DNA from: Alphaproteobacteria bacterium
GTDB lineage: Bacteria; Pseudomonadota; Alphaproteobacteria; UBA828
Length of the DNA stretch: 64,000 nucleotides
Assembly (NCBI GenBank): GCA_965214705.1
Contig: OZ243972.1
Span: 1,344,001-1,408,000, forward strand
Direction: 5' to 3'
Below are positions 46,597 to 64,000 of the stretch, piece after piece; the stretch's first letter is position 1, and each line of letters starts with the position of its first letter. Made by a program: the position numbers and the translations under genes. The notes beneath the pieces were generated by a model, which was not told the origin of the DNA, searched no databases, and saw only the letters and a program-made list of their open reading frames with translations.

Positions 46597-49199
46597 GTCT
46601 CGACGTCGCCCCGATTCCGATTGATGGGGCACCACGAGCGAACCCGCGTTGCCCAGCGACCAAAACAGATGCCGTAATGGGGCACGGCATCAACCTGCAC
46701 CGTTGGAGCCTGTACCGATGGCGGCGAATCGGGGTGTCGTTGCCCTTACACGCTGAGCGTGTCCACGGGGTCTTGCCGAAAGGCGCGCCCCAATCCCTCG
46801 AAAGGAAAGGGCAACGATGGAGTGGACGCCCCCTCCCGACGGCATCGAATCGTGCCAAGGTGGTGTCGTGTTGAACCACCTGAGGAAGGAGGCGTCCATG
46901 GAGAAAGTTACCATCATCGGGATCGACTTGGCGAAGAACAGCTTTCAGCTGCACGGGGCGCGGGATGATGGCTCCGTCGCATTCCGGAAGAAGCTAAGCC
47001 GCGGAAAGTTGCTCGACTTCCTCGCCGGCCAACAATGCTGTGTGGTCGCCATGGAGGCCTGCGCGAGCGCGCACTATTGGGGTCGCGAGGCCCAAGCGCT
47101 TGGACACGAAGTCAAGTTGGTCCCGCCGATCTACGTGAAGCCGTTCGTGAAGCGGCATAAGAACGATATGGCTGACGCGGAGGCGACCACCGAAGCGGCG
47201 CAGCGCCCAACCATGAGATTTGTGGCCGTGAAGACGGAAGAGCAGCAGGCCATGGGGATGCTGTTCCGCACACGCGATCTCCTGGTACGCCAGCGCACGC
47301 AAACGATCAATGCTCTGCGGGGTCACTTGGCGGAGTTCGGCGTCATCGCTCCGCAGGGGCCGGCTCATGTCAGTCGGTTGGAAGCAGCACTCATGGATCC
47401 GGGCTCGGGGCTACCGGAGGGGGTTCGTGAACTGGGTGGCCTTCTGCTGGAGCAGATCGCGGGCCTCAACTTGAAGATCGTCGGTTTGGAGAAGGAGCTC
47501 CGCGCCTGCGCGCGCCAGGACGAAGAAGCTTCGCGACTGATGACGATACCAGGCGTCGGGCCGATCACCGCAATGGCGGTTCAAGCATTCGCGCCTCCGA
47601 TGGAGAGCTTCCGTCGCGGGCGCGACTTCGCCGCGTGGCTCGGGCTCGTTCCAAGGCAGCACACGACCGGCGGCAAGCCGAGGCTGGGCAAGATATCCAA
47701 GATGGGCCAACGTGATCTCAGACGGCTCTTGGTCGTGGGTGCCATGGCGGAGATCGCTTGGGTAGTTCGTCGCGGCACCACAAAGGATCCGTGGTTGCTC
47801 AGTATGATGGAGCGCAAACCGCGCAAGGTTAAGGGTTGGGCAGGCTCTCTCTCGAGAGCCTGCCCAACCCTTTTGAACGAAGCCGCGGGCCACGAGAGGC
47901 GAAGTTGAGCTATGTGGAAAGTGCGCTGATGTCAGCGTCAGGCGGCATCCACCGGCAGCAGAGTTGCGCATGAGATCGACGCTCGCGCCGGCCTTTCGGC
48001 AGGCATGCGGGCGCACGCTGCGAGGACTGAGCGGGATGTGAGCCGAGGGCTGTCAGCCCGGCCCAAGCGGAGACAGGTTCGGTCGTGCGTCGGCGCTTTG
48101 GCGCCGTTGCGCGGGGCCGAAGCGAGCGGGCGTCTCACGGTTTCCCCCTGTGGGTCGGCGGCACGGCCGGCGGACCGCGCGTCGAGCGGGGCTCATGGCG
48201 GCGGCGGATTTCGCGGACGAGGCGCATGACGCCGCCGCAGTGGGGGCAGGCCACGGGCGCGGTGCCGATCTCGGGCTCTTCGTCGGGCTCGGCCTGAGCG
48301 CCGTCCACGCTTCCCTCGGGGGCGGCGCAGCCGAGGGCGCCGAGAGCCTGGCGTGCTCTCTCCAGCGTGCTGGCGCGGCAGCCGTTGGCGAGAATGCCGA
48401 AGTAGCGGATGCGGTGCATGCCGTCCGGCAGGACGTGCATCAGGAAGCGGCGGATGAACTCGTCTGCGCTCACGGTGGCGATGCCGTAGCGCGGCTTTCT
48501 CTGCCCCGGCGCCTTCGGCTTGCGGTGGCGGAAGGAGACCGTCTCGCCGTCGAAGGAGACGATGCGGCTGTCGGAGATGGCGATTCTGTGAGTGTAGTGC
48601 GACAGGTACCGGAAGACCTGCTCAGGCCCGCGGAAGGGCCGCTTGGCGTAGACCACCCAGTCCCTGGCCCGGGCGGCGGCAAGCGTGGCGTGGAACTCGC
48701 CGGGATTGGCGAGGTGGGCGACGGTGCCGTGGAACTCCAGGTCCCCCCGGCCGTGGGCGCGGGCGAGCTCCTTGAGGAAGAGGCGGCGGAACAGGCTGCC
48801 GAGGACCTTGACGGGGGCGAGGAAGGTGGTGCTCCCCGTCTTCCACTCGCCGCTGTCTACGTCGAAGCCCGCGTTGGGCACGACCACGTGCAGGTGCGGG
48901 TGGAAGCGGAGCTTCTGATCCCAGGTATGGAGGACCGCGGTGCCGCCGATGCGCATGCCACCGTGGTGGGGATCGGCGGCGATGGTGCGCAGGGTCTCGG
49001 CGACGGCCCGGAAGAGGATGTCGAACACCACCCTTCGGTTGCAGAAGGCAATGGCGGCGACCTCCTTGGGCAGGGTGAAGACCACATGGAAGTAGGGCAC
49101 CGGCAGGATGTCCCCGGCGCGGGCCTCGCTCCAGAGGTTGGCGGCGAGACCCTGGCAGGTCGGGCAGTGGCGGTTGCGGCAGGAGTTCTTATGAGCTCT

Positions 49200-49532
49200 C
49201 TCCGCAAGGCCCGGCTTCATCTACGTCAATGGCATTCGCAATCTCTCCACTCGAATCCGCGGCCGATGTCCAGGCAGAACGTCGTTTCCACGCAGCGATC
49301 CGCCACGCTGCTCAGCTCTTATCCGGTTCGGAACTCCGGCGCTTGCCGGCTCCGTGACCCCAATACCGCATCCAGGCGGTGGTGACGTTCCGGGAGGCGG
49401 GACCCATCTGTAGAACGGTGCCAAGCGGCGACCCAACTCTTGCCCGGTCACACGCCTTGCCCGGCATCCTCCGCGGCCGCGTCCGACCACGTCGGAACCT
49501 CCTGTATTTTCCCGTTCGTTCGGCCGGTGCCC
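49200..49532 (-). ncRNA. Putative bridge/seek RNA of the inner IS110
   Basis: Target matches at 49434-44 and 49409-18, donor-junction matches at 49363-67 and 49316-22; RNA ends unknown. Confidence 0.65.
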
Positions 49533-50729
49533 TCAGGAGACGATGGCGCCCTCAGGCACCAGTCCTTGGGTGGCATAGCGCCACAGCGCGATCAGCAGCT
49601 TGCGCGCGACCCCCACGATCGCCCGCTTCCTCGCTCGCCGGTCCCTCCCGCCACCGGCATCCCTGGCGACGTAGGCGTGGAACCACTTCGTGATCGCGCT
49701 TTCCGGTTGCAGCTTCAGCCAGCGCCAAGCCATCTGGATCATGTGCTTCCTGACATGCGAGGGGCCGGCCTTGCTGATGCCAAGATCGTGGTCGACATCT
49801 CCGCTCGCCCACGGCACCGACGTCAACCCGGCCCAGCTGCCCAACTCCCGGCGATTGCGGAAGTCCCGATAGAACACCTCGCCAGCCAGCAGTGTGGCGT
49901 CATTGAGGCCGATGCCATGGATGCGCGTAAGCGCCGCGATCATCGCCGTCCCGTCACGATTGGTCGCGTCCTGGGCTTTCCGGCCAGCCTTCAGCAGGGC
50001 CCTCTTCTCGGCCTCGATCATCTCGATATGCTCCTCAACCAGGCGAAGCATCCCCACCGCCCTCTCAATCTCTGCCCGCGCACGCGGCGGCAACGGCGCC
50101 CCATAGCCCGTCCGCGCGGTCGCGAGGCGTTCGAGGAAGTCCGGCTTGCGCGGCGCCAGATCGAAGATGCCGTGCAACTGCAAGAGCCCTTTGATCCGGT
50201 TGTTGACGCGGGTACGCTCGCTGATCAGCGTGTCCCTCTCGCGCAGCAGGCGCTTGGCATCCTCCTGGTCCACATCGGGCACGCGCACCCAGGACATGGC
50301 CTCCGAATCGCCTTGGTCCCATGCCTTCAGAGCCCGAACCATCCTCCTCGCGTCGATACGGTCGGTCTTTTTCTTCTTGGCGCGCCGGTTCACCCGCAGG
50401 CTCGCCGGATCGTTCATGAAGATATCGATCTCCGCGTCACGGCGCTCGATATCGCGGGCAAGCCAGAACCCCTCGTAGCCCGCCTCGTAGGTCAGCATCA
50501 CCCGAGGACGGGCGCCGAGCTCCCTCGCCACCCGTTCCCGCACCGACCCGACGAGATCCAACAGTCCCGCCGTGTCGGCAGCAGCCAGTGTGTGGATGCT
50601 GATGCTGCCACCCGAGGCATCCGGGCAATGCACGCCAACGATCCACGATTTGAGGCTGATCTCCACCGCGACATAAATCGTGCTACTACTTGCGCCTGTC
50701 AGCGCGGTCGTGTCTGGACCATCCGACAT
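49533..50729 (-). CDS. IS110-family recombinase
   Basis: VAVEIS, YEAGYEGFW, KTDRIDA, WAGLT..PWASG, VGVARKLLIALWR. Confidence 0.93.
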   Translation of the reverse strand: MSDGPDTTALTGASSSTIYVAVEISLKSWIVGVHCPDASGGSISIHTLAAADTAGLLDLVGSVRERVARELGARPRVMLTYEAGYEGFWLARDIERRDAEIDIFMNDPASLRVNRRAKKKKTDRIDARRMVRALKAWDQGDSEAMSWVRVPDVDQEDAKRLLRERDTLISERTRVNNRIKGLLQLHGIFDLAPRKPDFLERLATARTGYGAPLPPRARAEIERAVGMLRLVEEHIEMIEAEKRALLKAGRKAQDATNRDGTAMIAALTRIHGIGLNDATLLAGEVFYRDFRNRRELGSWAGLTSVPWASGDVDHDLGISKAGPSHVRKHMIQMAWRWLKLQPESAITKWFHAYVARDAGGGRDRRARKRAIVGVARKLLIALWRYATQGLVPEGAIVS

Positions 50730-51032
50730 CCGTCCACTCCGTTGTTGACGATTCCGCTCGGAGAGAAGGTGCTGGCCTTCTCTCCGAGCTTGTCTAACCG
50801 CCAGAATCGATTCGGTGCCACCGTGCTCATGGTATCTGAAGAGCGGATGCTCGCGCCCGCAGCCCTCGCAGGCGTACATGTGGCCGCCGAGCACGGCGGT
50901 GCGGCACGCCTCGATGGCGCCCATGACCTTGAGCCGGGCGGCGTCGATGCGCCCTTTGTGGCGCTCACGGAAAGCGGCGCCGGCGCGGCGGAGGATCTCC
51001 GCCACGCCCGCGCGTTCGGCCTCCACGCGCCG

Positions 51033-51911
51033 TCAGTTGCGCAACGCTGCGAAGCCTGAGATCGGGTGGTCGAGGCCCTCGAACATCTTGCCGGTGACGC
51101 GGGCGTAGTGACGGGTCGTGTTCGCGCTTCGATGGCCGAGCATGTCCCGGATCACCTCGATATCGCCGCCGCGCTCGAGGAGATGGGTCGCCGCCGAATG
51201 GCGCAGGCAATGGAAGGTGTAGCTGCGGTCGAGCTCGGCAATGTCGCGCGCCCTCCTGAAGGCGGCCTGCAAGGTCTCCGTTGCGATGGGCCTGTCGAGC
51301 GAGACGCCGTAGAAGAGCCAGCTCGTCGGACGCGGCCAGATGTTCCTGTAGTAGGCGCGCAAGTAGTGGATGACGATGTCCGGCAACGGTGCCATTCTCT
51401 CGGTGCCGCCTTTGCCGGAGGGGATGTGCAGCAGCTTCTTCTCCGACAGGATGTCGCCGACCTTGATGGCCAAGGTCTCGGAGATGCGGAGCCCGCCGCC
51501 ATAGCCGGTGACAATGGCAGCACGGTGGCGGAGGTCGGGCGTCGCAAGGATGAGGTGCTCGACCTCCTGCTCCGACATGTAGCGCGGCAGCTTGCCGGGC
51601 TTCTTGCGGGAGCGCAGGCCGGCGACGTGGTCAGGCCAGCCGAGTGTGTCGATGTAGAGGAAGTTCAGCGCGGCGAAGGAGACGTTGGTCGTGCCCGGAC
51701 TGAGCCCCTTGTCGATCCGCCCCAGGTACCACTGGCGCACCTGCTCGGCGTCGAGCTCGTCCGGCGAGGCGTCGTAGTACCTGGCCAGGTTCTTGATCTC
51801 GCAGATGTAGGCCTTGGACGTGCTCGCGGCCAGATTGGCGATGCGGAGCTGCTCCTCCATGCGCTGGCGAAGAGGGGTGACGGTGTTCGTGTCGCACGCG
51901 GTCCCGGTCAT
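51033..51911 (-). CDS. Tyrosine recombinase of the IS91-like element
   Basis: TPLRQRM, GLRISE, GKGG.ER, HCLRHS.ATHLLE, LGH, HYA. Confidence 0.92.
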   Translation of the reverse strand: MTGTACDTNTVTPLRQRMEEQLRIANLAASTSKAYICEIKNLARYYDASPDELDAEQVRQWYLGRIDKGLSPGTTNVSFAALNFLYIDTLGWPDHVAGLRSRKKPGKLPRYMSEQEVEHLILATPDLRHRAAIVTGYGGGLRISETLAIKVGDILSEKKLLHIPSGKGGTERMAPLPDIVIHYLRAYYRNIWPRPTSWLFYGVSLDRPIATETLQAAFRRARDIAELDRSYTFHCLRHSAATHLLERGGDIEVIRDMLGHRSANTTRHYARVTGKMFEGLDHPISGFAALRN

Positions 51912-52245
51912 TATCGATCTCCCTGGATCGCGACGGCGCGCCGCCGGACCGATCCGGCGACGGTCCGTCGCAGGGGTCGATGCTAACCACTGGTGATCGG
52001 GAGGCTGCTGGGGATCCGCCACCCGACGGGCGGAGCGCCACTGACGCAACCGGGAAGCGAACGCACAGAACAAACGGCACCCGCGACGCCTCGGAAATGA
52101 ATGAACTCTACGCCGCTAACTCCGCGTAGCGGCTTCGTTCAAGGTCGTCGCCATCGCGTTGGCCAACCGCATGGCGCGCATCATCTGGGCACTGAACACT
52201 AAAAAGGAGCTCTACCAAGCTCCCGCCGCCGCCCTACAAGGGTGA

Positions 52246-52929: not shown

Positions 52930-53766
52930 ATGTGTGAGCCGAAGCGTACCGCCGTGATTTATGATTTCGACGGAACGCTCGCCCGTGGCAATCTACAAGA
53001 GACCAGCTTCATTCCGAAAATCGATATGAGCAAAGAGGATTTCTGGACCGAGGTGAAGGCTCGAACCCGCAATCATGATGCCGATGAAGTTCTCGTCTAC
53101 ATGCACCTCATGCTCGACATGGCGCAAGAAAAGGGCGTCAAAGTGACCATCGAAGACCTGCGGCGACATGGCAAGAAAGCTCGGCTCTTTCCCGGTCTCT
53201 CGGACCGGTCATGGTTCGAACGCATCAACCAGCACGCCGCAACACGCGGCCTCGCCCTTGAGCACTACATCGTCTCCTCGGGCATTTACGAGATGATCGA
53301 TGGATGCTCGATCCGCGATGCCTTCCGCCGAGTGTTTGCGTCAAAGTTTATCTATGTTGACGGTGTGGCGGCTTGGCCGGGTGTTGGTATCAACTACACG
53401 ACAAAGACCCAATATTTGTTTCGGATAAACAAGGGCATCGATAACCACTGGGACAACGCCTCCCTCAACAGCTTCATGCCGGAAGACGAGCGCCCGATCC
53501 CGTTCGACCGTATGATCTTCTTGGGAGACGGAGATACCGATATTCCGACCATGAAAACGCTTACCTACATGGGTGGTCACTCGATCGGAGTCTATGATTC
53601 TAATGGGCACAGCCGCGACCTCACCAAAATCCACAGACTGATTTCCGATGGCCGTGTCGACTTCGTGGCACCTGCTGACTATGAGGAGAAGTCGCAGCTC
53701 GACATCATCATTAAGGGCATCCTCGGGCGCATCGCGAGAAAGTACGGATACAGGCCCTCAGCATGA
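52930..53766 (+). CDS. HAD-superfamily hydrolase
   Basis: YDFDGTL, IVSSG, K, LGDGDTDIP; GGAGG RBS. Confidence 0.9.
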   Translation: MCEPKRTAVIYDFDGTLARGNLQETSFIPKIDMSKEDFWTEVKARTRNHDADEVLVYMHLMLDMAQEKGVKVTIEDLRRHGKKARLFPGLSDRSWFERINQHAATRGLALEHYIVSSGIYEMIDGCSIRDAFRRVFASKFIYVDGVAAWPGVGINYTTKTQYLFRINKGIDNHWDNASLNSFMPEDERPIPFDRMIFLGDGDTDIPTMKTLTYMGGHSIGVYDSNGHSRDLTKIHRLISDGRVDFVAPADYEEKSQLDIIIKGILGRIARKYGYRPSA

Positions 53767-53840
53767 CGTTCAGATCGGCAATTACGAGCTAGTGTCGATC
53801 TTCAGGCGTCAATAATCGCCACCATGACTGTTCGACCCTT

Positions 53841-54170
53841 TCGGCACGGCTTCGATCCCGGAGTGCCGGAGGAGCTTGGAGGTCGTGCTGTCGCTGAGCG
53901 CCCGGCCGTGCGCCGACGGGAAGACCAGTCCCGTCTTGCCCGAGGGTTCCCGCGCTCCGTGCAGCCGGCGCGCGTGCGGAGAGCGGCACCCGTTGATCGC
54001 ACTTTGCCTTCATGCGGCTCGCCGGCACAGTCCAGGTTTCGACTCCAGGTCCACCTCGCCCCATCTGGCGTGCCGGACTTTGACCGACAGGTCATCAGCA
54101 CCAGGAACTCGAGCGCCAGGGCTGCGCTCTCGAACGCCCCTGACGCCTTCCTTCACCTTGTCGAGCGACC
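53841..54170 (-). pseudogene. Degenerate fragment of an integrase similar to 61439-62686
   Basis: Shared DNA such as TCAGCACCAGGAACTCGA and TGTCGCTGAGCGCCCGGCC; TWTVPASRMKAK...RVPLSARA; multiple indels. Confidence 0.85.
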
Positions 54171-54769: not shown

Positions 54770-55894
54770 ATGAACTCCTATTACGATCTAATTGCTAAAC
54801 CTACCTTGGCACCCGAAGCGTGGCATACTTCCTGCACCCATAGCGAAACGACACTACACCAACTGTCGCCATACATTGGTAAACTCAAGAGTTCGATCGC
54901 TAAAGACCTCATTTGCGCATACTCTAAACCGGGTGATTTAATAGCAGATGTATTTTGTGGCAGTGGCACAGTACCCCTAGAATCGCTCAACTTAGGCCGT
55001 CGGATTTTTGCATCCGATGCCGGGCTCTATGCGATAACGTTGACTAAGGGTAAGCTACATGCGCCACAAGACATAGACGCTGTACACACCGCTTTGGACG
55101 AAGTGCTACTGGACGCACGCTCAGTGCGGATAGATCTCCGTAAAGTTCCCAAATGGGTACGAACCTTTTATCACCCAAGAACTTTGAAGGAAGCATTAAG
55201 CATACTTGAAGAGTTGCGCATCCGTGACGACAACTTCCTATTAGCTTGTTTGTTGGGTATTTCTCACCATCAGCGACCGGGTTTCTTGTCATTTCCTAGC
55301 AGTCACCTTGTTCCATACCTAAGATCCAACAAGTTTCCAGAAAGCGACTTTCCTGAGATGTACACTTATCGTCAGGTAGAGCCGCGTATTCGGGCAAAGG
55401 TAGAGCGTGCTCTTAAACGAGGTGCCAATCTTGATCAAGAGCTAATTGTTGACATCCAGAGAAGTTCCGTTGAAGACCTATCTATACCCTTCCAGATAGA
55501 CTGTTTTCTTACTAGTCCTCCCTATATGAATGCTCTAGACTACGGTCGGGACAATCGCCTTCGCAATTGGCTCCTAGGGTCCGACACTGCTGAGGGCGTC
55601 GACAACCGGCTATCCAGAGAAACCGGCTTTCGAAGTATGATTTCGGCGTTTGCGTTGTTAGTAGAGAAAACCTTAGCTACGCGGGGAACATGCGTGATAG
55701 TAGTCGGTGAAAAAACCGCGCGCAAATCTGATCGCTTCCCGTCAGAGGTAATATCTGATATCATGAGTGATTTGGCACCCTCAATCCAGCTCACAGACAT
55801 AATAAGCGACCACATTCCTGACATACGCCGGTCGCGCCGGCATCTTTCAGGTGTTAAGAGGGAACATATTCTTATCTACAAGAGGATCGCCTAA
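54770..55894 (+). CDS. DNA amino-methyltransferase (SPPY, probably N4-cytosine)
   Basis: HQLSPYIGKL, DVFCGSGT, TSPPY. Confidence 0.88.
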   Translation: MNSYYDLIAKPTLAPEAWHTSCTHSETTLHQLSPYIGKLKSSIAKDLICAYSKPGDLIADVFCGSGTVPLESLNLGRRIFASDAGLYAITLTKGKLHAPQDIDAVHTALDEVLLDARSVRIDLRKVPKWVRTFYHPRTLKEALSILEELRIRDDNFLLACLLGISHHQRPGFLSFPSSHLVPYLRSNKFPESDFPEMYTYRQVEPRIRAKVERALKRGANLDQELIVDIQRSSVEDLSIPFQIDCFLTSPPYMNALDYGRDNRLRNWLLGSDTAEGVDNRLSRETGFRSMISAFALLVEKTLATRGTCVIVVGEKTARKSDRFPSEVISDIMSDLAPSIQLTDIISDHIPDIRRSRRHLSGVKREHILIYKRIA

Positions 55895-55895
55895 T

Positions 55896-58415
55896 ATGCG
55901 TGAACACTTACCCGACGCTGCTCATTTTATGGGAAAGACGTTGCCCAATTTTCCAAATTATACAATTGTTGAGCACGTTGGGACCGGCTTTAATGGCCAT
56001 GTGTATCGAGCGCATGCTAGTGAAATCAGTAGTGACCTGGCATTCAAATTTGTTCCAACTCAGAATGTGCCCTCCGACAAGAGGGGCACCCCAATCAATT
56101 TGAATGAAGCAAGAAAAGCTAACATTCTCGAGAACAGATGTGTGGTACGCTACGTGGACTTTCATATTTGGGCTGATAGCGAACTGGGAGAGAGCTTTGT
56201 CGTTTTCGTTTGCGACTATGTTCCCGGGTCGTCTTTGGACAAGTTTATATCCAAGAGACCTGAAGATGTAACTTTGGGATTCATTGAAACCTTTCTCCGT
56301 ACGATACTTGACCTACTTTACGAAATGCAACAGCGAAACATGGAGCACGGGGATCTACACGCGGGAAACGTATTGGTTGCAGATTCAGCATTTACCCTTG
56401 ATAGCGAAGCTTTGTTTCGGGTAACGGACTTCGGTATAAGGGAGATTACCAGCGGTCCCCACAATAGTGACTTCCTGCACCTCGCAGAAACACTGAAAAA
56501 GCTACTTAAATGCGTAGATTACAGGGCCGAAGTATCCCGAAATAGATACGCTTTTGAAGTACTTCGCCATGAATTTCTTGGTCGGCATCTAATTGAGACC
56601 GACCCGTTGGCAGACCCTCTAGCTCGCAACCCCGAAGGGCTACACAGAAAATTGCGCGCTTTGGATGACAATTTTAGAGAAAAGAACAGAGAGCACGCGT
56701 CGGCAAGTATGGTAACACCATTCGACTATCCTAATTGCGAGCAAATGGGGAACTCACATCTGCTGCTGCGAAATCTATATTCTAACAGACTTTTGGGACT
56801 GAACGAGATTATGGCACGCTCCAACCTAGTTCTAACTGGTCCCCGTGGCTGTGGTAAAACAACCGTATTTAGAGCTTTGAGCCTCGAGTATCTTTTGTTT
56901 GTGGAGTCATCGGATCTTAGTAACCTGGAGTTCATAGGAGTCTATTATCGATGCGATGATCTATATTTCTCCTTTCCACGATACAGATTGCCGGTGCGGG
57001 AGGAAGCAATAGACATACCGATGCACTTCGTGGTTGTCAGCTTAGCGATCGAAACGCTGAGATATTTGTCCTCATGGGCTGAACGTCAACACGTCAAAGA
57101 ATTTCAGGAAAAGGAGGTAGAAGTAACAACAAAGCTTTGGGACGTCTTTGGATTGGCTCAACCGTCCGGCCCAGCTTCACAGAGGTTTGCTTACCTAGTT
57201 TCGAGGTTACTGAAGCAGCGTACACGGGCTGCGAAGAAGCAACGTTTTTGCCACGTACCAACCGAGCCGATAGAAGGATATGTTGGCCCACGAGCGTTGA
57301 TGGAGTTTTGCGCAGTGTTGCGATCGGAGTTTTCGTTCCTGCAGGATCGGCCCTTTTTCTATTTCATTGATGATTATTCTACACCAAAGATCACAGGTGA
57401 TTTGCAACAGTGTTTGAACCGGTTGTTTATGCATCGAAGCTCCGATATGTTTTTCAAGATTTCGACTGAAAGCCCAATTTCGTTTGAGCGGAGGGATATT
57501 GACGGAAAGGAGTATGTAGAGGAGAGGGAGTATAAGCTGTTGAATTTAGGACTTCGGTATTTGAGGAACGAAGGAGGACAGGTGGAGGCGTTTCTTGCTG
57601 ATCTGTTTGAGAAGCGCTTTCGAGAGATCGAGGCGTTTCGTTGTGATACTCTGGTTGAATTGCTGGGAGAGAATAATCGAAACGAAAACGAGACAGCAAG
57701 ACAGGTCCGTGCTGGCAAGGGTAACAACACTTTCTTTGGGATTCAAACAGTGACCGCAATGTGCAGCGGCGATATTCATTCCATGATCCGTTTGGTGGAG
57801 AAGATGGTAGAGGACGCAGGTGGCATGGGGTCCATCAGTACAAGCAGTCAAGTACCGCGTATAGCTGCCAACACTCAATCTAGCACGGTGAGAAGGGCTG
57901 CCGGCGAGTTTATGGAGTCTGTTCGAACGCTGCCGCAGAGGGGAGAAGGCCTTGCAAAAATTGTTAGTGCTATAGGTAATGTGGCTAGCTCCTACATGCG
58001 GTATCGGGATGCACGCAATGAAACGGGAAACCCTCCGCACCAGGCGTCTCGCATAGAACCTTACGAGCCTCTGTGCTTGTCCCAAGACGCCCAAGACTTG
58101 TTGAATGACTTAATACGGTTCTCAATTCTGTTGGTTGATCCACGGGGAAAAAGCCGGAGAGGAAATATTGTTCCGCGATTCTACCTGCGAAGGTACTTGA
58201 TACCACATTTCAATCTAACCTTCAGCAAGAGGGACTCGCTGGAGTTGGAGAACGCAGAAATTGAGCTGCTTCTAGTCGACCCGGCGAAGTTTCAAGAGAC
58301 GAAGCGGCTAAAGGAAGCCGGTACAAAAGAAAAGAGAGGTACCTCCGGGACTAGCGGCCAAAAGGAGCTCTTCGAAAGAGTTTCGGTAGCCAAGCAAGAA
58401 AACAAAGATGGTTAG
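55896..58415 (+). CDS. Ser/Thr kinase-like domain fused to a STAND/ORC-CDC6-like P-loop ATPase
   Basis: GTGFNGHV, AFK, HGDLHAGN, TDFG; GPRGCGKT, FFYFIDD; wHTH-like C-terminus. Confidence 0.85.
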   Translation: MREHLPDAAHFMGKTLPNFPNYTIVEHVGTGFNGHVYRAHASEISSDLAFKFVPTQNVPSDKRGTPINLNEARKANILENRCVVRYVDFHIWADSELGESFVVFVCDYVPGSSLDKFISKRPEDVTLGFIETFLRTILDLLYEMQQRNMEHGDLHAGNVLVADSAFTLDSEALFRVTDFGIREITSGPHNSDFLHLAETLKKLLKCVDYRAEVSRNRYAFEVLRHEFLGRHLIETDPLADPLARNPEGLHRKLRALDDNFREKNREHASASMVTPFDYPNCEQMGNSHLLLRNLYSNRLLGLNEIMARSNLVLTGPRGCGKTTVFRALSLEYLLFVESSDLSNLEFIGVYYRCDDLYFSFPRYRLPVREEAIDIPMHFVVVSLAIETLRYLSSWAERQHVKEFQEKEVEVTTKLWDVFGLAQPSGPASQRFAYLVSRLLKQRTRAAKKQRFCHVPTEPIEGYVGPRALMEFCAVLRSEFSFLQDRPFFYFIDDYSTPKITGDLQQCLNRLFMHRSSDMFFKISTESPISFERRDIDGKEYVEEREYKLLNLGLRYLRNEGGQVEAFLADLFEKRFREIEAFRCDTLVELLGENNRNENETARQVRAGKGNNTFFGIQTVTAMCSGDIHSMIRLVEKMVEDAGGMGSISTSSQVPRIAANTQSSTVRRAAGEFMESVRTLPQRGEGLAKIVSAIGNVASSYMRYRDARNETGNPPHQASRIEPYEPLCLSQDAQDLLNDLIRFSILLVDPRGKSRRGNIVPRFYLRRYLIPHFNLTFSKRDSLELENAEIELLLVDPAKFQETKRLKEAGTKEKRGTSGTSGQKELFERVSVAKQENKDG

Positions 58416-59454
58416 GGACATGTTAACCAGGGTGGACGAGAGACTGCGTTCTGCCAAGTGGCCAGCGCTGCGACCGTTAGACCGTTTGGATATGGGTGAG
58501 AGGGACTGCCTGTTAGTGGTCGGCGGTTTCGAGGAAAGGGCGTTATCGGTGCTGCGATCTGCCGTTGAAGAATCAGACAGTTTTCGGGTTGTCCTTATCA
58601 AGTATCTTCCGGTGGTGACAGAGAACAGAGATGAAGAGTGTGTGAAATTGTGCAAAGATGCGTGCTTGCCTTTAGATCAGCTTGTGTATGACAGGGAGAA
58701 TCCATCGAACGCAGGCGACAGCATAGCAGATTATCTATGTGGTTTCGACAACGTTTTTGTCGACGTGTCCGGTATGTCGCGGTTGCTGATTGTCCAAATA
58801 GTTGTGGCAATGATTGAACGTGGTAAGGCTTTTATTGTGCTTTACACTGAGGCAGATGTGTACCCACCGGAGGAAGATGAGTTTCTTCGAAAGCAACATG
58901 GAGAACGGGGAAGCGTATCTTTCATATCTAGCGGTATATTTGAGATTGTCTCTTGTCCCGAGTTGAGCTCAGTATCTATGCTTGGAGGTGCAATTCGTCT
59001 GATTTCATTTCCGTCATTCGATCCCGTACAGTTGTCTAATGTCGTACAAGAATTACAGCCAACCCATAATGATGTGATCAATGGGGTTCCGCCGGATCTA
59101 AGCATGGGGTGGCGGACAAATGCCATAAGTGAACTGAACAAAGCAAATATGAGCGCCCTGCAACGCGTCCGAGAGCATGAAGCAAGTACGTTCGACTATA
59201 GGGAGACGTTGGAGATAATATTAGAGCTGTATAAAATGCACTCTGTATATGACCGTATAGTGATAGCGCCCACTGGTAGCAAGATGCAGGCTGTGGCAGT
59301 TGGCATTTTACGTGGAGTACTTACAGACCTACAAATAGTATATCCCACGCCATTGATGTTTTTGGATCCTGCTCACTATACCGAAGGCTCAAAGGCTACC
59401 TTTCAGCTATCTATCGGTTCTGTATTGACAGACGTCGGAGATGTGTCCAGGTGA
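58408..59454 (+). CDS. Tandem Rossmann (CARF-like) protein
   Basis: LLVVGGFEER...VFVDVSGMSRLL and LISFPSFDP...IVIAPTGSKMQA; overlaps the upstream gene; fold is inferred. Confidence 0.6.
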   Translation: MVRDMLTRVDERLRSAKWPALRPLDRLDMGERDCLLVVGGFEERALSVLRSAVEESDSFRVVLIKYLPVVTENRDEECVKLCKDACLPLDQLVYDRENPSNAGDSIADYLCGFDNVFVDVSGMSRLLIVQIVVAMIERGKAFIVLYTEADVYPPEEDEFLRKQHGERGSVSFISSGIFEIVSCPELSSVSMLGGAIRLISFPSFDPVQLSNVVQELQPTHNDVINGVPPDLSMGWRTNAISELNKANMSALQRVREHEASTFDYRETLEIILELYKMHSVYDRIVIAPTGSKMQAVAVGILRGVLTDLQIVYPTPLMFLDPAHYTEGSKATFQLSIGSVLTDVGDVSR

Positions 59455-60490
59455 CGATTCAGGACTAGGAGGTGACGAGTATCTTTAGTCGGGCATAGTT
59501 GAGAATTGGGGGGCGGAGTTAGCGTATGTTGCTGACCCGACGGGTCGACAACGAAAAGCTAAGAAACGAGGGTCGGCGGTGGAGGGGGCCAAGGCTTTCG
59601 CCGGGTAGGCAAAGGCATCCGGTGTGGGGACGCGAGCCGAGAATGCGGAGACTATGATGCCGGATGGCGACACGGAGATTGCCGATCTCAGGCTGATGGG
59701 TCTAGGCTGAAGTACTATCTGTACAGCTAGCGCTCGAAATACAGTCAGCGGCTTGTCAATCAGCAGATCGAGGAGTTCGTAGTGAGCGCATCGGTGCGCT
59801 GGGTGGTGTGCTGGGTGGTGTCGGAGCGTGCCGCGTGGTCGGGGCGAAGGAGGTAAAGGGGGGCTGAGCCACCCGGAGGCCCGCCCAAATTGCGGTACGC
59901 GCGCATCTTGCATGCTAGCGTGAGGCAGGTGCCGGCGCCGACGGCCTGCAGGTGTTGCGGCTAGGGCGAGCTGTGGAAAGTCGACGAGGACAGGGCCGAA
60001 TCGCTAAAGGCGACCTTGCACCCGTGGAGAAGGAGACCCAGACCGTGGGCGAGATGTTCAGACCTCGAGCGATTTCACTGTTGCCAGTGCCCCCTTCAAC
60101 CAGTGGACCAGTCTCCGACAAGCTGCCTACGGGCAATAGAGCTGGCGGAAGTCGACTCCGTGGTCTCGGCGTTCAACAGACAGGTGATGCAGGAGATCGA
60201 CAACGACGATTTTCTGGAAGGCCAGCGCAAGCTGGTGTTGGTTGGCACCAACAGTGCCAGCCAGATCTATCTGGCAGTCGGTCCTGCACGTACGGGAGAA
60301 CCTGGAAGTGCTGATGCAACACGGTCCACCTGGTCACCTAGCTCGGGGGTAACCCGCAAATCAAAATGCCGCTTAAGGGAACGAGCCTCCCAGCGTCGAA
60401 CCGTCGTTGATCGATGACTTCACTGCGGGCATGGCTCATGATTAGCCCTCTTGCACTGGAACACAAGGCTACAGCCGATAGGATCCCACA

Positions 60491-61423
60491 ATGACAATTG
60501 GTAGCGAGGAAAAGAGGCAACTCGATGCGGTGCGACGCCTCGAACAAGTCACACGACGTCCTGTCAGCAAGGGGTTAGAGGACCTTCTCCACCAGGTGCT
60601 GCCCGTCCTCGATCATGGCTTTGTTAGAGTCGTTGATTATATGGGTGACGACTCTTCTGTCGTACAGGCTGCCCGTGTCTCTTACGGAACCGGAACTCGA
60701 AAAAAACGAGAAGATCACAATCTAATCAACTACTTGATGCAGCACAATCATACCACGCCATTTGAAATGGCTGAAATAAAGCTTCATGTGAAACTTCCAA
60801 TTTTCGTTGCACGTCAATGGATACGACATAGAACCGCGAGTGTCAACGAATACTCCGCACGCTACTCTGTATTAGATAGAGAGTTTTACGTACCGGATCC
60901 AGAGAATCTTGCCGCTCAATCACCATCAAATCGGCAAGGACGAGAAACCATTCTACACGGTGACGAAGCGCGCGAAGTCTTGCAAATGCTGCGTGACGAC
61001 GCGGAAACCGCCTACGAACACTATCAATACCTCCTGAACGAGGACTCGAAGGGAAAGAAACGCGACGAAAAGAGGCAAGGCCTTGCTAGAGAACTAGCAC
61101 GCTTGAACTTGAGCGTAAATTTCTATACGCAGTGGTACTGGAAAGTGGACCTCCACAATCTATTGAGGTTCCTTCAGCTAAGAGCGGATTCACACGCGCA
61201 GTACGAAATTCGTGTATACGCAGATCTGCTCCTAAATATTCTCGAATGTTGGGTTCCGCTGACTGCCCTAGCATTTCGAGAGCATCGTCTGGATGCCACT
61301 GTTTTATCTCGAACAGCAACAAACGTCATAAAAGAAAAATTGGCGGGAAAGTCGGTTTCTTTCGACGATAGTGGGCTGTCAAAACGTGAGTGGAACAATC
61401 TTACCAAAACACTTGGCTTATAG
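60491..61423 (+). CDS. thyX: FAD-dependent thymidylate synthase
   Basis: AARVSY, HTTPFE, RQWIRHRTASVNEYSARY (RHRx7S), ARELAR, HAQYEIR. Confidence 0.96.
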   Translation: MTIGSEEKRQLDAVRRLEQVTRRPVSKGLEDLLHQVLPVLDHGFVRVVDYMGDDSSVVQAARVSYGTGTRKKREDHNLINYLMQHNHTTPFEMAEIKLHVKLPIFVARQWIRHRTASVNEYSARYSVLDREFYVPDPENLAAQSPSNRQGRETILHGDEAREVLQMLRDDAETAYEHYQYLLNEDSKGKKRDEKRQGLARELARLNLSVNFYTQWYWKVDLHNLLRFLQLRADSHAQYEIRVYADLLLNILECWVPLTALAFREHRLDATVLSRTATNVIKEKLAGKSVSFDDSGLSKREWNNLTKTLGL

Positions 61424-61438
61424 TGCCTCCACGCTTGG

Positions 61439-62686
61439 TTAAGACCTACCACCGCCTCGGCGGTCGCCGCTTTTGGCCGATCGCCCGACGAACCCCGACC
61501 ATTCCTCCATCAACACCCGCCGTCGCTCGAACAGGTCGGTCCGCCGATACGCGGCCTCCACGCGATCTGAATTCACATGCGCGAGCGCGAGCTCGCAGAC
61601 CTCGCGGGGCGCATCCGAGCACTCCGCCGCCCAGTCGCGGAAGGACGACCGGAAGCCGTGCGGCACGGCCTCGATGCCGAGCTCCCGGAGCAGCTTGGAG
61701 ATCGTGTTGTCGCTGAGCGCCCGGCCCTGCGGCGAGGGGAATATCAGCCCGGACCGGTCCTCGAAGGCGCGCGCCTCCTCCAGGATCTCCAGCGCGCGGG
61801 CCGACAGCGGCACCCGGTGATCGCGCTTCGCCTTCATCCGGCTTGCGGGCACCGTCCATGTGCCCGATTCGAAATCGACCTCGTCCCAGGTTGCGAGCCG
61901 GACCTCGCCGGACCGAGTGGCCGTCAGCACCAGGAACTCGAAGGCGAGCGCGGTGAGCTGTTGCGCACCCGACGTCTTCACCTTCTTGAGCGCGGCACCG
62001 ACCTCGGGGAAGGGGAGGGCGCGCTGGTGCCGGCGCACGCTGCCGTTCTTCGGCAACGCGGCGGAGATTGCGTCGCCGGCGGGATTGTCGTCGCGGTAGC
62101 CCTGTGCGATGGCCCACTTCATCACCGCGCCGATCCGCTGGCGCACGCGCCGCATGGTTTCGGTCTTGGTGTGCCAGTGCGGGATCAGGACGGCCATCAC
62201 GTCGGCGGTGGTGATCTGGTCGACGCGCCTGCGGCCGAGCCGCTTCATGGCGTAGTCCCGGAGCGAGGCACGCCATTGCTTCTCGCTCTTGCCGGCGTCC
62301 TTCCAGCCTTCGCGGTGGATGGCGATCACGGTCTCGACTGCGTCCGCGAAGGTGGGCACGTCCGGTTTGCGCTTGAGCGCGATCGGATCGCCCCCCGCCC
62401 ATGAGATCTTCCGGTACTCGAAGGCCTTTTGGCGGGCTTCGGCGAGGGAGACGTAGGGGAATGCGCCGAGGCCCACGTCGCGGCGCATGCCGTTGACGGT
62501 TCCGCGCCAGATCCAGTGTTTGGAGATCGACTTCCGTTTGCGCGACTCGTAGACTCGGAGGCGCAGTCCGTGCTGGTCGCCGTAGACGCCGGGCCGGTTG
62601 ACGGTCTTGACGAATGCGGCGGTGAGGCGTCCTTTCTTTGGGACTTTGATGGCGGACGCGGAGGGAATCGAACGCGTTTCGGGCAT
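61439..62686 (-). CDS. P4-type tyrosine integrase of the island
   Basis: GLGAFPYVSLAEAR arm domain, TATRSGE, RMK..RDHRVPLS, HGFRSSFRDW, LAH, AAYRR. Confidence 0.95.
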   Translation of the reverse strand: MPETRSIPSASAIKVPKKGRLTAAFVKTVNRPGVYGDQHGLRLRVYESRKRKSISKHWIWRGTVNGMRRDVGLGAFPYVSLAEARQKAFEYRKISWAGGDPIALKRKPDVPTFADAVETVIAIHREGWKDAGKSEKQWRASLRDYAMKRLGRRRVDQITTADVMAVLIPHWHTKTETMRRVRQRIGAVMKWAIAQGYRDDNPAGDAISAALPKNGSVRRHQRALPFPEVGAALKKVKTSGAQQLTALAFEFLVLTATRSGEVRLATWDEVDFESGTWTVPASRMKAKRDHRVPLSARALEILEEARAFEDRSGLIFPSPQGRALSDNTISKLLRELGIEAVPHGFRSSFRDWAAECSDAPREVCELALAHVNSDRVEAAYRRTDLFERRRVLMEEWSGFVGRSAKSGDRRGGGRS

Positions 62687-62697
62687 GCTTTCCGGTA

Positions 62698-62718
62698 CCC
62701 ATAATGAGTCCCACAATG
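62698..62718. repeat. Possible integrase arm-type direct repeats
   Basis: CCCATAATG / CCCACAATG with a 12-bp period between the integrase and att. Confidence 0.45.
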
Positions 62719-62834
62719 CGATCGATATTGGCTGAGAACTGTGTAGAACGCAAGGCAAGAGTTGGGCCGGTAACCCTTTGATCTTGAACAACAGTTACGA
62801 ACGGTTGAGAAGCGTTGAAAACTCCCTTGGGCGG

Positions 62835-63002: not shown

Positions 63003-64000
63003 CTAAAACACAACGCGCAGGCCTACGTTCACCAGGTGGTCGCTGCGGGAGCCGTCGCCGGTGCGGCCTGAGTAGCCCAGGACAGCGCTCCCTTGCCCGC
63101 CGAGGCTCATGGAAACGCCGAGATCGACGCTCAGCCAGTCCTCGGGCGGCGCAAACCCCTCCACCGTGAACTGCCCGTTCATGGTGTTGGAGCCCGCCGT
63201 GACCGAGACGGGGTCGCCATGGAGCTCCTTGGCATAGGCGGCGGCAACGTAGGGACGAATGCCGAGGCTCTCCGAGCCCGCCTCGAACGAGAACCGGTAG
63301 CCGGCGCGGGCGACGAGGGAGCCGCGCTCGAACGCGGCAAAGTTCATGGCGGTGGAGGAGGTTCCGCTCTCGCGGTAGCCGTCCACCTCCTGATCGAGCC
63401 AGGAGAGACCGAGCGCGGGCCCGTGGCGGGTCCCCTCCGCCTCGCCCATCGTCCAGCCGAGGCCAAGATCGACGCCGACCTGACGCCCCGCCGTCGAGCC
63501 GCGCTCGGTGTTCACCGCCGGCCCGAGGGTCATGGAGCGCTCGATGTCCATACCGGTTCTGCCCAGGTTCACCGCGGCGCTGAGCTGCAGTCCGCCTTGC
63601 CGCCAGGTTCCGTGCAGCGAGCCGACGGCCGTCTCGCTCTCGAGGGAGGCACCCTCGACGCCGTTGTCGTGACGGCCCAGGCTGAGCGCCACGCCCCACC
63701 GGAAATCGCGTGACGCCCGCTGGCCGAAGCCGAGGGTCACGGCTTGCTCGTCGACCTGCGCCTCGCCGAGACGCGGCGGGGCCTCGACCGCGCGCCGGCC
63801 CGTGTGCGCAACCGCGTAGCTGTGCCAACGCCCGACGGAGTACTTTCGATCGGAAAGTTGCTCGGCCGCGATGACGCTGCGGTGTGCCGCCACCGCCGCC
63901 TCGCCCGCTTCGCCGGCGAGCGAGACCTGGAGCGGCGCCTTAAGGGTTGCCGTCACCACACTTGCGAGGATCGCGTGTGCCCCGCCGCTGGGGTGCTTGT
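63003..64000 (-). CDS. Autotransporter beta-domain of a GDSL esterase (EstA-like), 5' outside window
   Basis: KHPSGGAHAILA (GDSL block V-like) at the window edge, amphipathic beta strands, terminal Phe (VGLRVVF). Confidence 0.8.
   Translation of the reverse strand, partial: KHPSGGAHAILASVVTATLKAPLQVSLAGEAGEAAVAAHRSVIAAEQLSDRKYSVGRWHSYAVAHTGRRAVEAPPRLGEAQVDEQAVTLGFGQRASRDFRWGVALSLGRHDNGVEGASLESETAVGSLHGTWRQGGLQLSAAVNLGRTGMDIERSMTLGPAVNTERGSTAGRQVGVDLGLGWTMGEAEGTRHGPALGLSWLDQEVDGYRESGTSSTAMNFAAFERGSLVARAGYRFSFEAGSESLGIRPYVAAAYAKELHGDPVSVTAGSNTMNGQFTVEGFAPPEDWLSVDLGVSMSLGGQGSAVLGYSGRTGDGSRSDHLVNVGLRVVF

Follow-up and report, generated by a model that had tools for sequence, protein, structure and literature searches.

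Here, we focus on a three-gene cassette from an Alphaproteobacteria bacterium (GTDB lineage Bacteria; Pseudomonadota; Alphaproteobacteria; UBA828; GenBank assembly GCA_965214705.1), found on contig OZ243972.1 in a stretch of 64,000 nucleotides (positions 1,344,001 to 1,408,000 of the forward strand) that is termed the window below and is numbered from its first letter. The genes, named g1, g2 and g3, encode a predicted amino-methyltransferase, a protein kinase fused to an ATPase that resembles ORC/Cdc6 proteins, and a protein with a predicted tandem CARF fold. They form one tightly coupled, lower-G+C, horizontally mobile unit, and the cassette is accessory, widespread and mobile. On balance, we favour reading it as an immune system that works without a nuclease, is linked to methylation and is directed against phages or other invading DNA, with a mechanism that we infer; we do so because of the domains of the three proteins, their linkage, the conservation of their catalytic motifs, the accessory spread of the cassette and the defence-island flanks of its copies.

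Layout and conserved linkage of the cassette

Open reading frame (ORF) calling and translation place the three genes on the forward strand, where they fill positions 54770–59454 of the window (table 1). A single base separates the stop codon of g1 from the ATG of g2, and the end of g2 runs 8 bases into g3. In the database, g3 is given 344 amino acids, with the second methionine taken as its start; the gap to g2 would then be 4 bases. The G+C content is 47.6% for g1 and 47.5% for g2 and g3, compared with 67.9% for positions 1–50000 of the window and 68% for the genome. No nuclease family occurs among the Pfam, PADLOC and NCBIfam matches of the three proteins. Scans for promoter-like sites (5 found, 6.7 ± 2.9 expected) and terminator-like sites (4 found, 7.2 ± 3.0 expected) were uninformative. 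A sequence-only reading of this DNA had described three tightly coupled genes of lower G+C that lack a nuclease motif and lie in island cargo; coordinates, spacing and composition were correct, the profile searches agree on the missing nuclease, and the island setting is confirmed by the mobility genes described below.

Relatives of the cassette were compared at 89 loci, made up of nine loci from one genome per species and 80 metagenome loci; counts over these loci keep near-duplicate contigs such as L017, L018 and L075. Eight of the nine genome loci have g1, g2 and g3 colinear at 42–67% identity, and these eight come from Gammaproteobacteria, Vicinamibacterales, Spirochaetia, Nitrospinota and Enterobacteriaceae; the ninth holds a truncated g2 beside transposases. 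Across the 89 loci, the methylase gene g1 lies directly upstream of g2 in 63 of the 66 loci where this could be tested, g3 lies downstream of g2 in all 64 testable loci, and the alignment gaps between g1 and g2 are mostly 5–12 bases, so the neighbourhood conservation that the sequence-only reading had proposed as a check is found. The trio occurs together far more often than chance would allow, its genes being colinear in dozens of contigs unrelated to one another. An exception is L026, where a different full-length PF01555 DNA methylase stands right after g3 (E = 4e-55; PADLOC MTase_II, E = 7e-68). This methylase reads as a non-orthologous replacement of g1, which argues that a DNA methylase is needed by the cassette.

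A search of 40 related genomes, 20 of them from the same genus, did not find g2, and the cassette is therefore accessory. The ATPase family comprises 969 representatives at E ≤ 1e-3 (50% clustering) and 255 at E ≤ 1e-30, and clustering at 90% identity yields 781 clusters for g2 and 864 for g3. None of 50,697 phage records holds a relative of g2, for which reason a phage-encoded counter-defence module was rejected, and only two of 72,556 plasmid records hold relatives, both distant.

Clustering of the flanking ORFs at the 89 loci showed that, beyond g1–g3, only type I restriction–modification (RM) genes (HsdS in eight loci) and thyX (seven loci) recur, and no nuclease is a conserved neighbour. 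Defence-type flanks include type I RM genes in eight loci and, at L008, a DUF1156 methylase with GmrSD and an SNF2 helicase; further defence-type or mobile flanks are Vsr/Dcm at L006, ParE/Phd at L007, McrBC at L091 and Tn7 TnsD/TniQ at L005. In two Gammaproteobacteria, a protein of 576–578 amino acids with a class I S-adenosylmethionine (SAM)-methyltransferase domain is encoded directly upstream (L002, 2789–4519; L003, 2782–4518), and the L002 protein also has an HNH_4 domain. At L004 (1899–5999), the methylase forms the end of a 1366-amino-acid frame in which Pfam matches nothing over residues 1–994; this frame may be either a true fusion or a spurious high-G+C frame, and it was not counted as a fusion.

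Predicted functions of the three proteins

The protein encoded by g1 matches PF01555 N6_N4_Mtase (E = 6e-11) and, in PADLOC, 45 methylase models in all, with E values that reach 1.7e-16 for the type II MTase. Its sole sequence match in the PDB is M.MboIIA (E = 0.003), and the nearest Atlas clusters all carry the name 'DNA methyltransferase'. Motif X/I (HQLSPYIGKLKS ... FCGSGT) comes first and motif IV (TSPPY) about 180 amino acids later, while the SAM-binding end of the beta-class profile (positions 168–210 of 221) aligns to residues 41–83. Given this position of the SAM-binding end and of TSPPY some 180 residues on, g1 can therefore be placed, by its sequence, as a permuted relative of beta-class N6/N4 DNA methylases in which motif I precedes motif IV. 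Motif I and the extended motif TSPPYMN.LDY.RDNRLR are at least 90% conserved in 57 unique g1 homologues.

The N-terminal part of g2 is predicted to be a Hanks-type protein kinase: residues 22–189 match Pkinase (Pfam, E = 7.9e-12), the region after DFG is without a match to the Pfam kinase profile, and a PDB search with a profile of 46 homologues returned protein kinases only (CDK9, ULK1/2, PknA and StkP) over positions 17–187. The C-terminal part belongs with ORC/Cdc6-like ATPases, as PF24389 (ORC-CDC6-like) matches at E = 1.7e-42 when the whole of g2 is searched, covering residues 302–785, and both halves were confirmed separately. The motifs are GTGFNG, AFK, HGDLHAGN and DFG in the kinase, and GPRGCGKTT (Walker A) and IDDYS (Walker B) in the ATPase. 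Among 46 homologues, with a mean column identity of 65%, the invariant residues include G31, K51, H151, D153, N158 and D178-F179 of the kinase, the entire Walker A motif from G315 to T323 (with its P-loop arginine R317) and D492-D493 of Walker B. A basic hairpin in the winged-helix-like C-terminal end (D748–P770) is likewise invariant.

Structure models of the g2 ATPase and of g3 were ranked by VIA-align search. The model of g2 residues 296–839 has a predicted local distance difference test score (pLDDT) of 91.1, and its matches are headed by the archaeal ATPases 2qen (PAB2304; Z 14.6, 309 residues aligned, root-mean-square deviation 4.6) and 2fna (SSO1545; Z 13.3), with plant NLRs (Z 11–11.8), Orc1/Cdc6 and ORC subunits (Z 10.4–11.7; Orc1/Cdc6 2qby, 11.7), TnsC (Z 11.3), MuB (Z 11.1) and RdrA (Z 9.4) further down; BrxC (Z 8.2–8.6) ranks below more than 35 other AAA+ chains. 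Foldseek alone gave weaker, mixed matches with HslU first, and ORC was not singled out. The sequence-only reading had called this domain a STAND ATPase. That label is close, in that NLR structures lie nearby, and it is not established, since the nSTAND3 match in Pfam is below threshold (E = 0.024, as against 1.7e-42 for PF24389); ORC/Cdc6-like AAA+ appears the better-supported label from both profile and model.

The third protein is modelled as two Rossmann-like halves, at residues of about 30–150 and 190–320 (pLDDT 84.9; predicted template modelling score 0.88; built on 48 homologues). Profile searches match PADLOC CARF6--CARF_CARF_CARF (E = 1.9e-13), with further CARF6 models ranging to 1.2e-4, and the C-terminal third of CARF6--CARF_STK_AAA (E = 4.7e-12); Pfam Csa3_N scores 18.9 bits against a cut-off of 27, and an NCBIfam search of g3 returned no match. 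The CARF6 label presumably stems from Makarova et al. 2020. The best structural match is Can1 (6sce; Z 14.8, 242 residues aligned over both halves, root-mean-square deviation 4.2), followed by Csm6, Can2, Card1, Csa3 and Cam1 at Z 11–12.6 (11.7–12.6 for the first four), and SAVED domains match at Z 8–10. Of the 20 best chains, only two are not CRISPR-associated members of the CARF family: VC1899 (1xmx) at rank 8 and, at rank 16, a viral SAVED ring nuclease. Identity to the matched CARF and SAVED structures is 8–16%, and Foldseek alone gave a mixture of tandem USP, Csm6, Can1 and KaiC at E of about 1e-5. From the model, g3 is predicted to have a tandem CARF fold that forms a pseudo-dimer like Can1 or SAVED.

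The loops after strands 1 and 4 of each half of g3 are invariant (G40-F41-E42, D119..S124, F201..D205 and P288..Q294). In particular, DVSGMSR (119–125), which follows the strand at 116–119, and PTGSKMQ (288–294), which follows the strand at 282–287, are invariant or nearly so in 48 sequences. Hallmarks of CARF domains are a conserved polar loop that follows strand 1 and, behind strand 4, a motif resembling [DN]x[ST]xxx[RK]; g3 has both. These loops lie where CARF ligands bind, and they outline a putative ligand pocket. The two CARF-like repeats and the intact SPPY, kinase and Walker motifs, all noted in the sequence-only reading, are thereby borne out, the former by the predicted fold and its match to Can1, the latter by the conservation of the g1 motifs and the invariance of the key g2 residues. 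The homologue sets of g1, g2 and g3 (57, 46 and 48 sequences) suggest purifying selection on all catalytic motifs.

A partnership of g2 and g3 is indicated by fusions in relatives. An exhaustive search with the ATPase profile was made, and its best 150 representatives were inspected for fusions: three are single chains of 1219–1244 amino acids that join kinase, ATPase and tandem CARF, and one joins ATPase and CARF in 922 amino acids. In an hhalign comparison, the g3 profile aligns to residues 873–1202 of one fusion (E = 4e-15, probability 98.5%). An earlier word-indexed search had returned no longer proteins in which g3 is fused; that search is a weak one, and the exhaustive search later found the fusions. 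Judged from these fused relatives, g2 and g3 would work together. Complex prediction, which the sequence-only reading had suggested for this pair, gives weak backing to their contact: for g2(296–839) with g3 the median score was 0.48 (runs 0.48, 0.74 and 0.47), compared with 0.00 for the best of three controls, and the runs have at least 82% of contacts in common, with a partner pLDDT of at least 81. Of 80 solved complexes, 58 reach the pass mark, as do 2 of 110 mismatched pairs, rates that are rough because our own alignments were used, and scores of 0.60 or below were reached by only 7 of those 80 complexes and by both passing mismatches.

Island setting, thyX and competing explanations

The cassette lies in a low-G+C block (table 1). 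At the right edge of the block is a P4-type tyrosine integrase gene and at the left edge a fragment related to it: direct repeats D1–D3 (72–84% DNA identity, about 7.8 kb apart) link the two, and tblastn finds integrase residues 272–387 in the fragment at 48–61% identity in two frames. These repeats bracketing the block suggest tandem or nested island insertions; no tRNA is present in the window, and a clear attachment repeat was not found. Further upstream lies a region that derives from a conjugative element or plasmid and has insertion sequences nested in it. It encodes a TrwC relaxase-helicase (1369 amino acids), IS110- and IS91-family transposases and a tyrosine integrase; one of its ORFs combines an IS91 zinc finger with IS110 domains. 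Just upstream of the cassette is a HAD-family hydrolase gene, a member of a PADLOC candidate family of single-gene defences, that is not conserved beside the cassette elsewhere. An autotransporter gene at the right end of the window falls outside the island.

Table 1. Features in and around the cassette, in window coordinates.
Feature	Positions	Strand	Remarks
Conjugative-element or plasmid-derived region	42487–52073		TrwC relaxase-helicase, transposases, tyrosine integrase
IS91/IS110 ORF	49533–51026	-	497 amino acids
HAD-family hydrolase gene	52930–53766	+	53.9% G+C; PADLOC candidate PDC-S34, E = 2.6e-104
Integrase fragment	53812–54149	-	left edge of low-G+C block; related to full integrase
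g1	54770–55894	+	374 amino acids from ATG; open frame begins at TTG 54707
g2	55896–58415	+	839 amino acids from ATG; frame opens at GTG 55851
g2, N-terminal part	55896–56780	+	predicted Hanks-type protein kinase domain, residues 1 to about 295
g2, C-terminal part	56781–58415	+	predicted ORC/Cdc6-like AAA+ with helical insert, lid and winged-helix-like end
g3	58408–59454	+	348 amino acids
Spacer between g3 and thyX	59455–60490		59.6% G+C
Spacer ORF	59485–59913	-	no Pfam or PADLOC match
Spacer ORF	60016–60417	+	no Pfam or PADLOC match
thyX	60491–61423	+	flavin-dependent thymidylate synthase; Thy1, E = 4.5e-54
P4-type tyrosine integrase gene	61439–62791	-	Arm-DNA-bind_3, Phage_int_M, Phage_integrase; right edge of low-G+C block
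Autotransporter beta-domain gene	63003–63959	-	E = 2.5e-34; right end of window

A thyX gene with an intact motif (RHRTASVNEYSARY) sits 1 kb downstream of g3. Its G+C content of 47.7% equals that of g1–g3, which indicates that it arrived with them. A second thyX in the genome, on contig C2, is 54% identical and lies in DNA of 67% G+C, and no thyA was found in this genome. The spacer between g3 and thyX is probably an insertion or decayed DNA and could have split thyX from the operon; its arginine- and proline-rich ORFs are unconvincing as genes. Including this window and a further locus, L097, thyX is found in or beside the cassette at 9 of 91 loci (7 of the 89). It overlaps the start of g1 at L042, L052 and L053 and the end of g3 at L016, follows g3 at L009 and L015, and lies 2 kb downstream at L082. 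At L015 (8847–11015), the thyX linked to the cassette carries an inserted intein that has an HNH endonuclease domain. Locus L097, on the Bradyrhizobium quebecense plasmid NZ_CP088025.1 (record positions 69538–75559), carries a cassette that is 28–30% identical in g2 and g3 and in which kinase (247 amino acids) and ATPase (653 amino acids) are separate, overlapping genes; the gene order is methylase, kinase, ATPase, CARF, thyX, and two genes upstream stands a gene with a restriction endonuclease annotation. We regard thyX as a probable accessory gene of the cassette, a recurrent, co-acquired fourth gene that the sequence-only reading had overlooked.

Several observations weigh against the reading favoured here, and they are considered below together with the competing explanations. 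The first set concerns the substrate of g1. Amino-methylases with an (S/D/N)PPY motif include rRNA and tRNA m2G enzymes and protein-glutamine enzymes, and g1 has weaker matches to the RlmKL-like family PF01170 (Pfam, E = 6.9e-6) and to Trm14 (NCBIfam, E = 0.01–0.1). Moreover, the block LGI.HHQRPGFLS.PSSHLVPYLR between the motifs is also at least 90% conserved in the 57 unique homologues, which was unexpected. It lies where a target-recognition domain would be expected, and in its conservation g1 is unlike typical RM or BREX methylases. Such conservation suggests one target common to the whole family, and RNA or protein are possible substrates on this ground. Were g1 to modify RNA or protein, by m2G- or HemK-type chemistry, the cassette would serve in stress or conflict, with nucleotides or translation at its centre, and the recurrent thyX would share a nucleotide-metabolic function. 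We consider this very unlikely: the best matches of g1 are to DNA methylases (PF01555, the 45 PADLOC models, M.MboIIA and the Atlas names), a canonical DNA methylase replaces it in L026, and the g2 ATPase has an ORC-like winged helix.

A second set concerns the signal that g3 would receive. The cassette encodes no ligand source, and neither Cas10 nor a CD-NTase is present in the window or among the recurrent neighbour clusters of the 89 loci; by location, g3 is not a CRISPR or CBASS ancillary gene. Searches of five cassette-bearing genomes for Cas10-type proteins used TIGR02577 and TIGR02578, and PF22335 (the Cas10 palm) was dropped since it matches Escherichia coli controls too. The genome studied here has a SMODS match at C1:3.51 Mb, about 2.1 Mb from the cassette, and Cas10/Cmr2-like matches in several short frames at C3:1650383–1652100; these pieces, on another contig than the cassette, may stem from a type III CRISPR gene that is broken or has suffered a frameshift, in an assembly whose contamination estimate is 8.7%. 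Genome G043 has a Cmr2 match over the cut-off, G041 has a SMODS match only, and G042 has neither type of match. It could be argued from such sources that the cassette is a signal-driven abortive-infection effector, in which g3 senses a cyclic oligonucleotide made by Cas10 or a CD-NTase, the kinase-ATPase is the toxin and the methylase is a passenger or regulator. The closest structures to g3 are indeed receptors of cyclic oligoadenylate (Can1, Csm6, Can2, Card1, Csa3 and Cam1), and its ligand-loop positions are invariant. This explanation nevertheless seems unlikely to us, as the cassette moves without a cyclase, G042 has no detected source of either type, and the methylase, present at 63 of 66 testable loci and replaced in L026, is too constant for a passenger.

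A third set concerns the methylase as guardian of the cassette. The testable loci L067 and L081 have g2 and g3 without a recognisable upstream methylase (in L067, the 320-amino-acid ORF that precedes g2 does not encode a methylase and seems to be spurious), and g2–g3, kept there without g1, may thus not be lethal alone. This bears equally on the proposal that the cassette is an addiction or maintenance module of mobile elements, whose kinase-ATPase and CARF proteins would be toxic unless g1 methylates DNA or another target. Such a module would suit a cassette that lies between an integrase and its remnant, near transposases and a TrwC relaxase, that is Tn7 cargo in L005 and plasmid-borne in L097, and whose genes are translationally coupled with the methylase first. 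We nonetheless assign it a low probability: phage records hold no relative and plasmid records only the two distant ones, many chromosomal copies have no mobility gene in the fetched flanks, and L067 and L081 appear to keep g2–g3 without g1. RM-like systems can, moreover, be both addictive and defensive, so that this proposal overlaps with a defensive role.

Finally, the flanks at L002, L003, L009 and L067 are ordinary and metabolic, the backing from complex prediction for g2–g3 contact is weak, and the case for defence is drawn from genomic context.

Relation to known systems and a possible mechanism

The closest described relatives of g2–g3 form a small family of fused proteins with a zinc ribbon, a Ser-Thr-Tyr kinase, AAA+, CARF and a winged helix–turn–helix, with an arginine in the P-loop (Makarova et al. 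2014, PMC4012209). With these proteins g2–g3 has in common the kinase, AAA+ and CARF domains, the order in which they come and the arginine of the P-loop (GPRGCGKT). The PADLOC model CARF6--CARF_STK_AAA (PDLC01925) spans both proteins, as g2 matches its positions 330–678 (E = 2.7e-21) and g3 its positions 875–1184. The cassette differs from the fused family in that g3 is a separate, translationally coupled gene and a zinc ribbon was not detected; it adds a methylase, which goes unmentioned for the fused family in the accessible part of PMC4012209, and in some copies thyX. The sequence-only reading had regarded the combination as undescribed, and this holds in part: the g2–g3 architecture is present in the accessible text of that paper and in PADLOC-DB, while neither a name for the cassette, nor an experiment on it, nor a printed methylase linkage was found in the literature searched. 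The accessible parts of papers on CoCoNuT, Tn7 cargo, BREX diversity, MADS and DefensePredictor were found to contain no description or test of the cassette, and the term 'CARF6' retrieved unrelated papers only. The linkage to thyX is new here.

The cassette resembles Pgl/BREX type 2 (PMC12839542), in which a DNA methylase (PglX) occurs with a protein kinase (PglW) and an ATPase of the ORC/Cdc6 clade (PglY/BrxC), and for which a dedicated restriction endonuclease was not recognised at first. In contrast to Pgl/BREX type 2, the cassette is without PglZ (a phosphatase of the alkaline-phosphatase family), a BrxB-like module, a NERD nuclease or a pseudokinase, and Pgl is without a CARF protein. 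PglZ is found neither among g1–g3, nor among the window neighbours, nor among the recurrent neighbours at the 89 loci. Membership was rejected on this ground, together with a PglX match of E = 6.3e-4 over only 38 residues and no match to the BrxC model.

In MADS, the methylation-associated defence system (mad1–mad8), discrimination is described as methylation-based, and a single operon encodes a kinase together with P-loop ATPases (PMC13662399), features in which the cassette resembles it. MADS has eight genes with two ATPase-nuclease modules (MAD3/4 and MAD7/8), whereas the cassette has three genes and no nuclease. The g2 kinase matches PADLOC mad6 (E = 2.9e-12, residues 19–181), and matches to mad3 and mad8 barely exceed the P-loop; membership was rejected, given 20.7 bits for NCBIfam MAD6 against a cut-off of 460 and the lack of nuclease genes. 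A type II RM system was likewise rejected, there being no endonuclease in g2 or g3 and no conserved nuclease neighbour.

At the level of single proteins, g3 resembles Can1, tandem-CARF and SAVED receptors in that one polypeptide is modelled to form a pseudo-dimeric pocket, and differs from them in having no fused nuclease or effector and in not lying beside Cas10 or a CD-NTase. The g2 ATPase shares an AAA+ core, a lid and a C-terminal winged helix with archaeal Orc1/Cdc6, PAB2304 and SSO1545, from which it is set apart by a long helical insert, the N-terminal kinase, another genomic role and an identity of 9–13%. The cassette would thus combine methylation-linked, kinase-bearing defence with CARF-regulated effectors, a combination that is catalogued in part only.

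If the cassette is an immune system, its action can be envisaged in stages. The g1 methylase would methylate host DNA, at N6-adenine or N4-cytosine, at a motif common to the whole family, and so mark self. The ORC/Cdc6-like AAA+ of g2 would bind nucleic acid via its basic winged-helix hairpin and act as an ATP-dependent switch responding to unmarked DNA. Bound to g2, as in the relatives where both form one polypeptide, g3 would take a nucleotide-type ligand into its composite CARF pocket and thereby gate or amplify the switch. The output would be the N-terminal kinase of g2, which may phosphorylate host or phage proteins; since no nuclease is present, the outcome would be a block to phage replication or an abortive shutdown of the cell brought about by phosphorylation. 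In the subset of copies with thyX, this one included, its product may free dTMP synthesis from reliance on the host enzyme while the response lasts or, alternatively, may counter phage interference with the thymidylate supply.

A bolder version of this scheme, which we put forward as a rather doubtful speculation, would amount to a new immune logic. A methylase of fixed specificity would mark self, and an ORC-like DNA sensor and a stand-alone tandem-CARF receptor would jointly license a kinase as the only effector, with neither a nuclease nor a dedicated cyclase involved. As its ligand, the CARF receptor would recognise a nucleotide that the invader itself produces or disturbs, and not a host cyclic oligoadenylate; a pyrimidine or thymidylate metabolite is one candidate, suggested by the recurrence of thyX.

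The thyX linkage and a CARF protein without a cyclase are the most intriguing features of the cassette. Should it prove defensive, epigenetic self-marking would be coupled to phosphorylation, and not to DNA cleavage, in a widespread system that sometimes brings its own thymidylate synthase, and a CARF receptor would be in use outside the signalling pathways of CRISPR and CBASS. A three-gene construct could then show what CARF domains sense without a cyclase, and the cassette would bear both on how nuclease-free, BREX-like systems stop phages and on which substrates Hanks-type kinases phosphorylate during infection.

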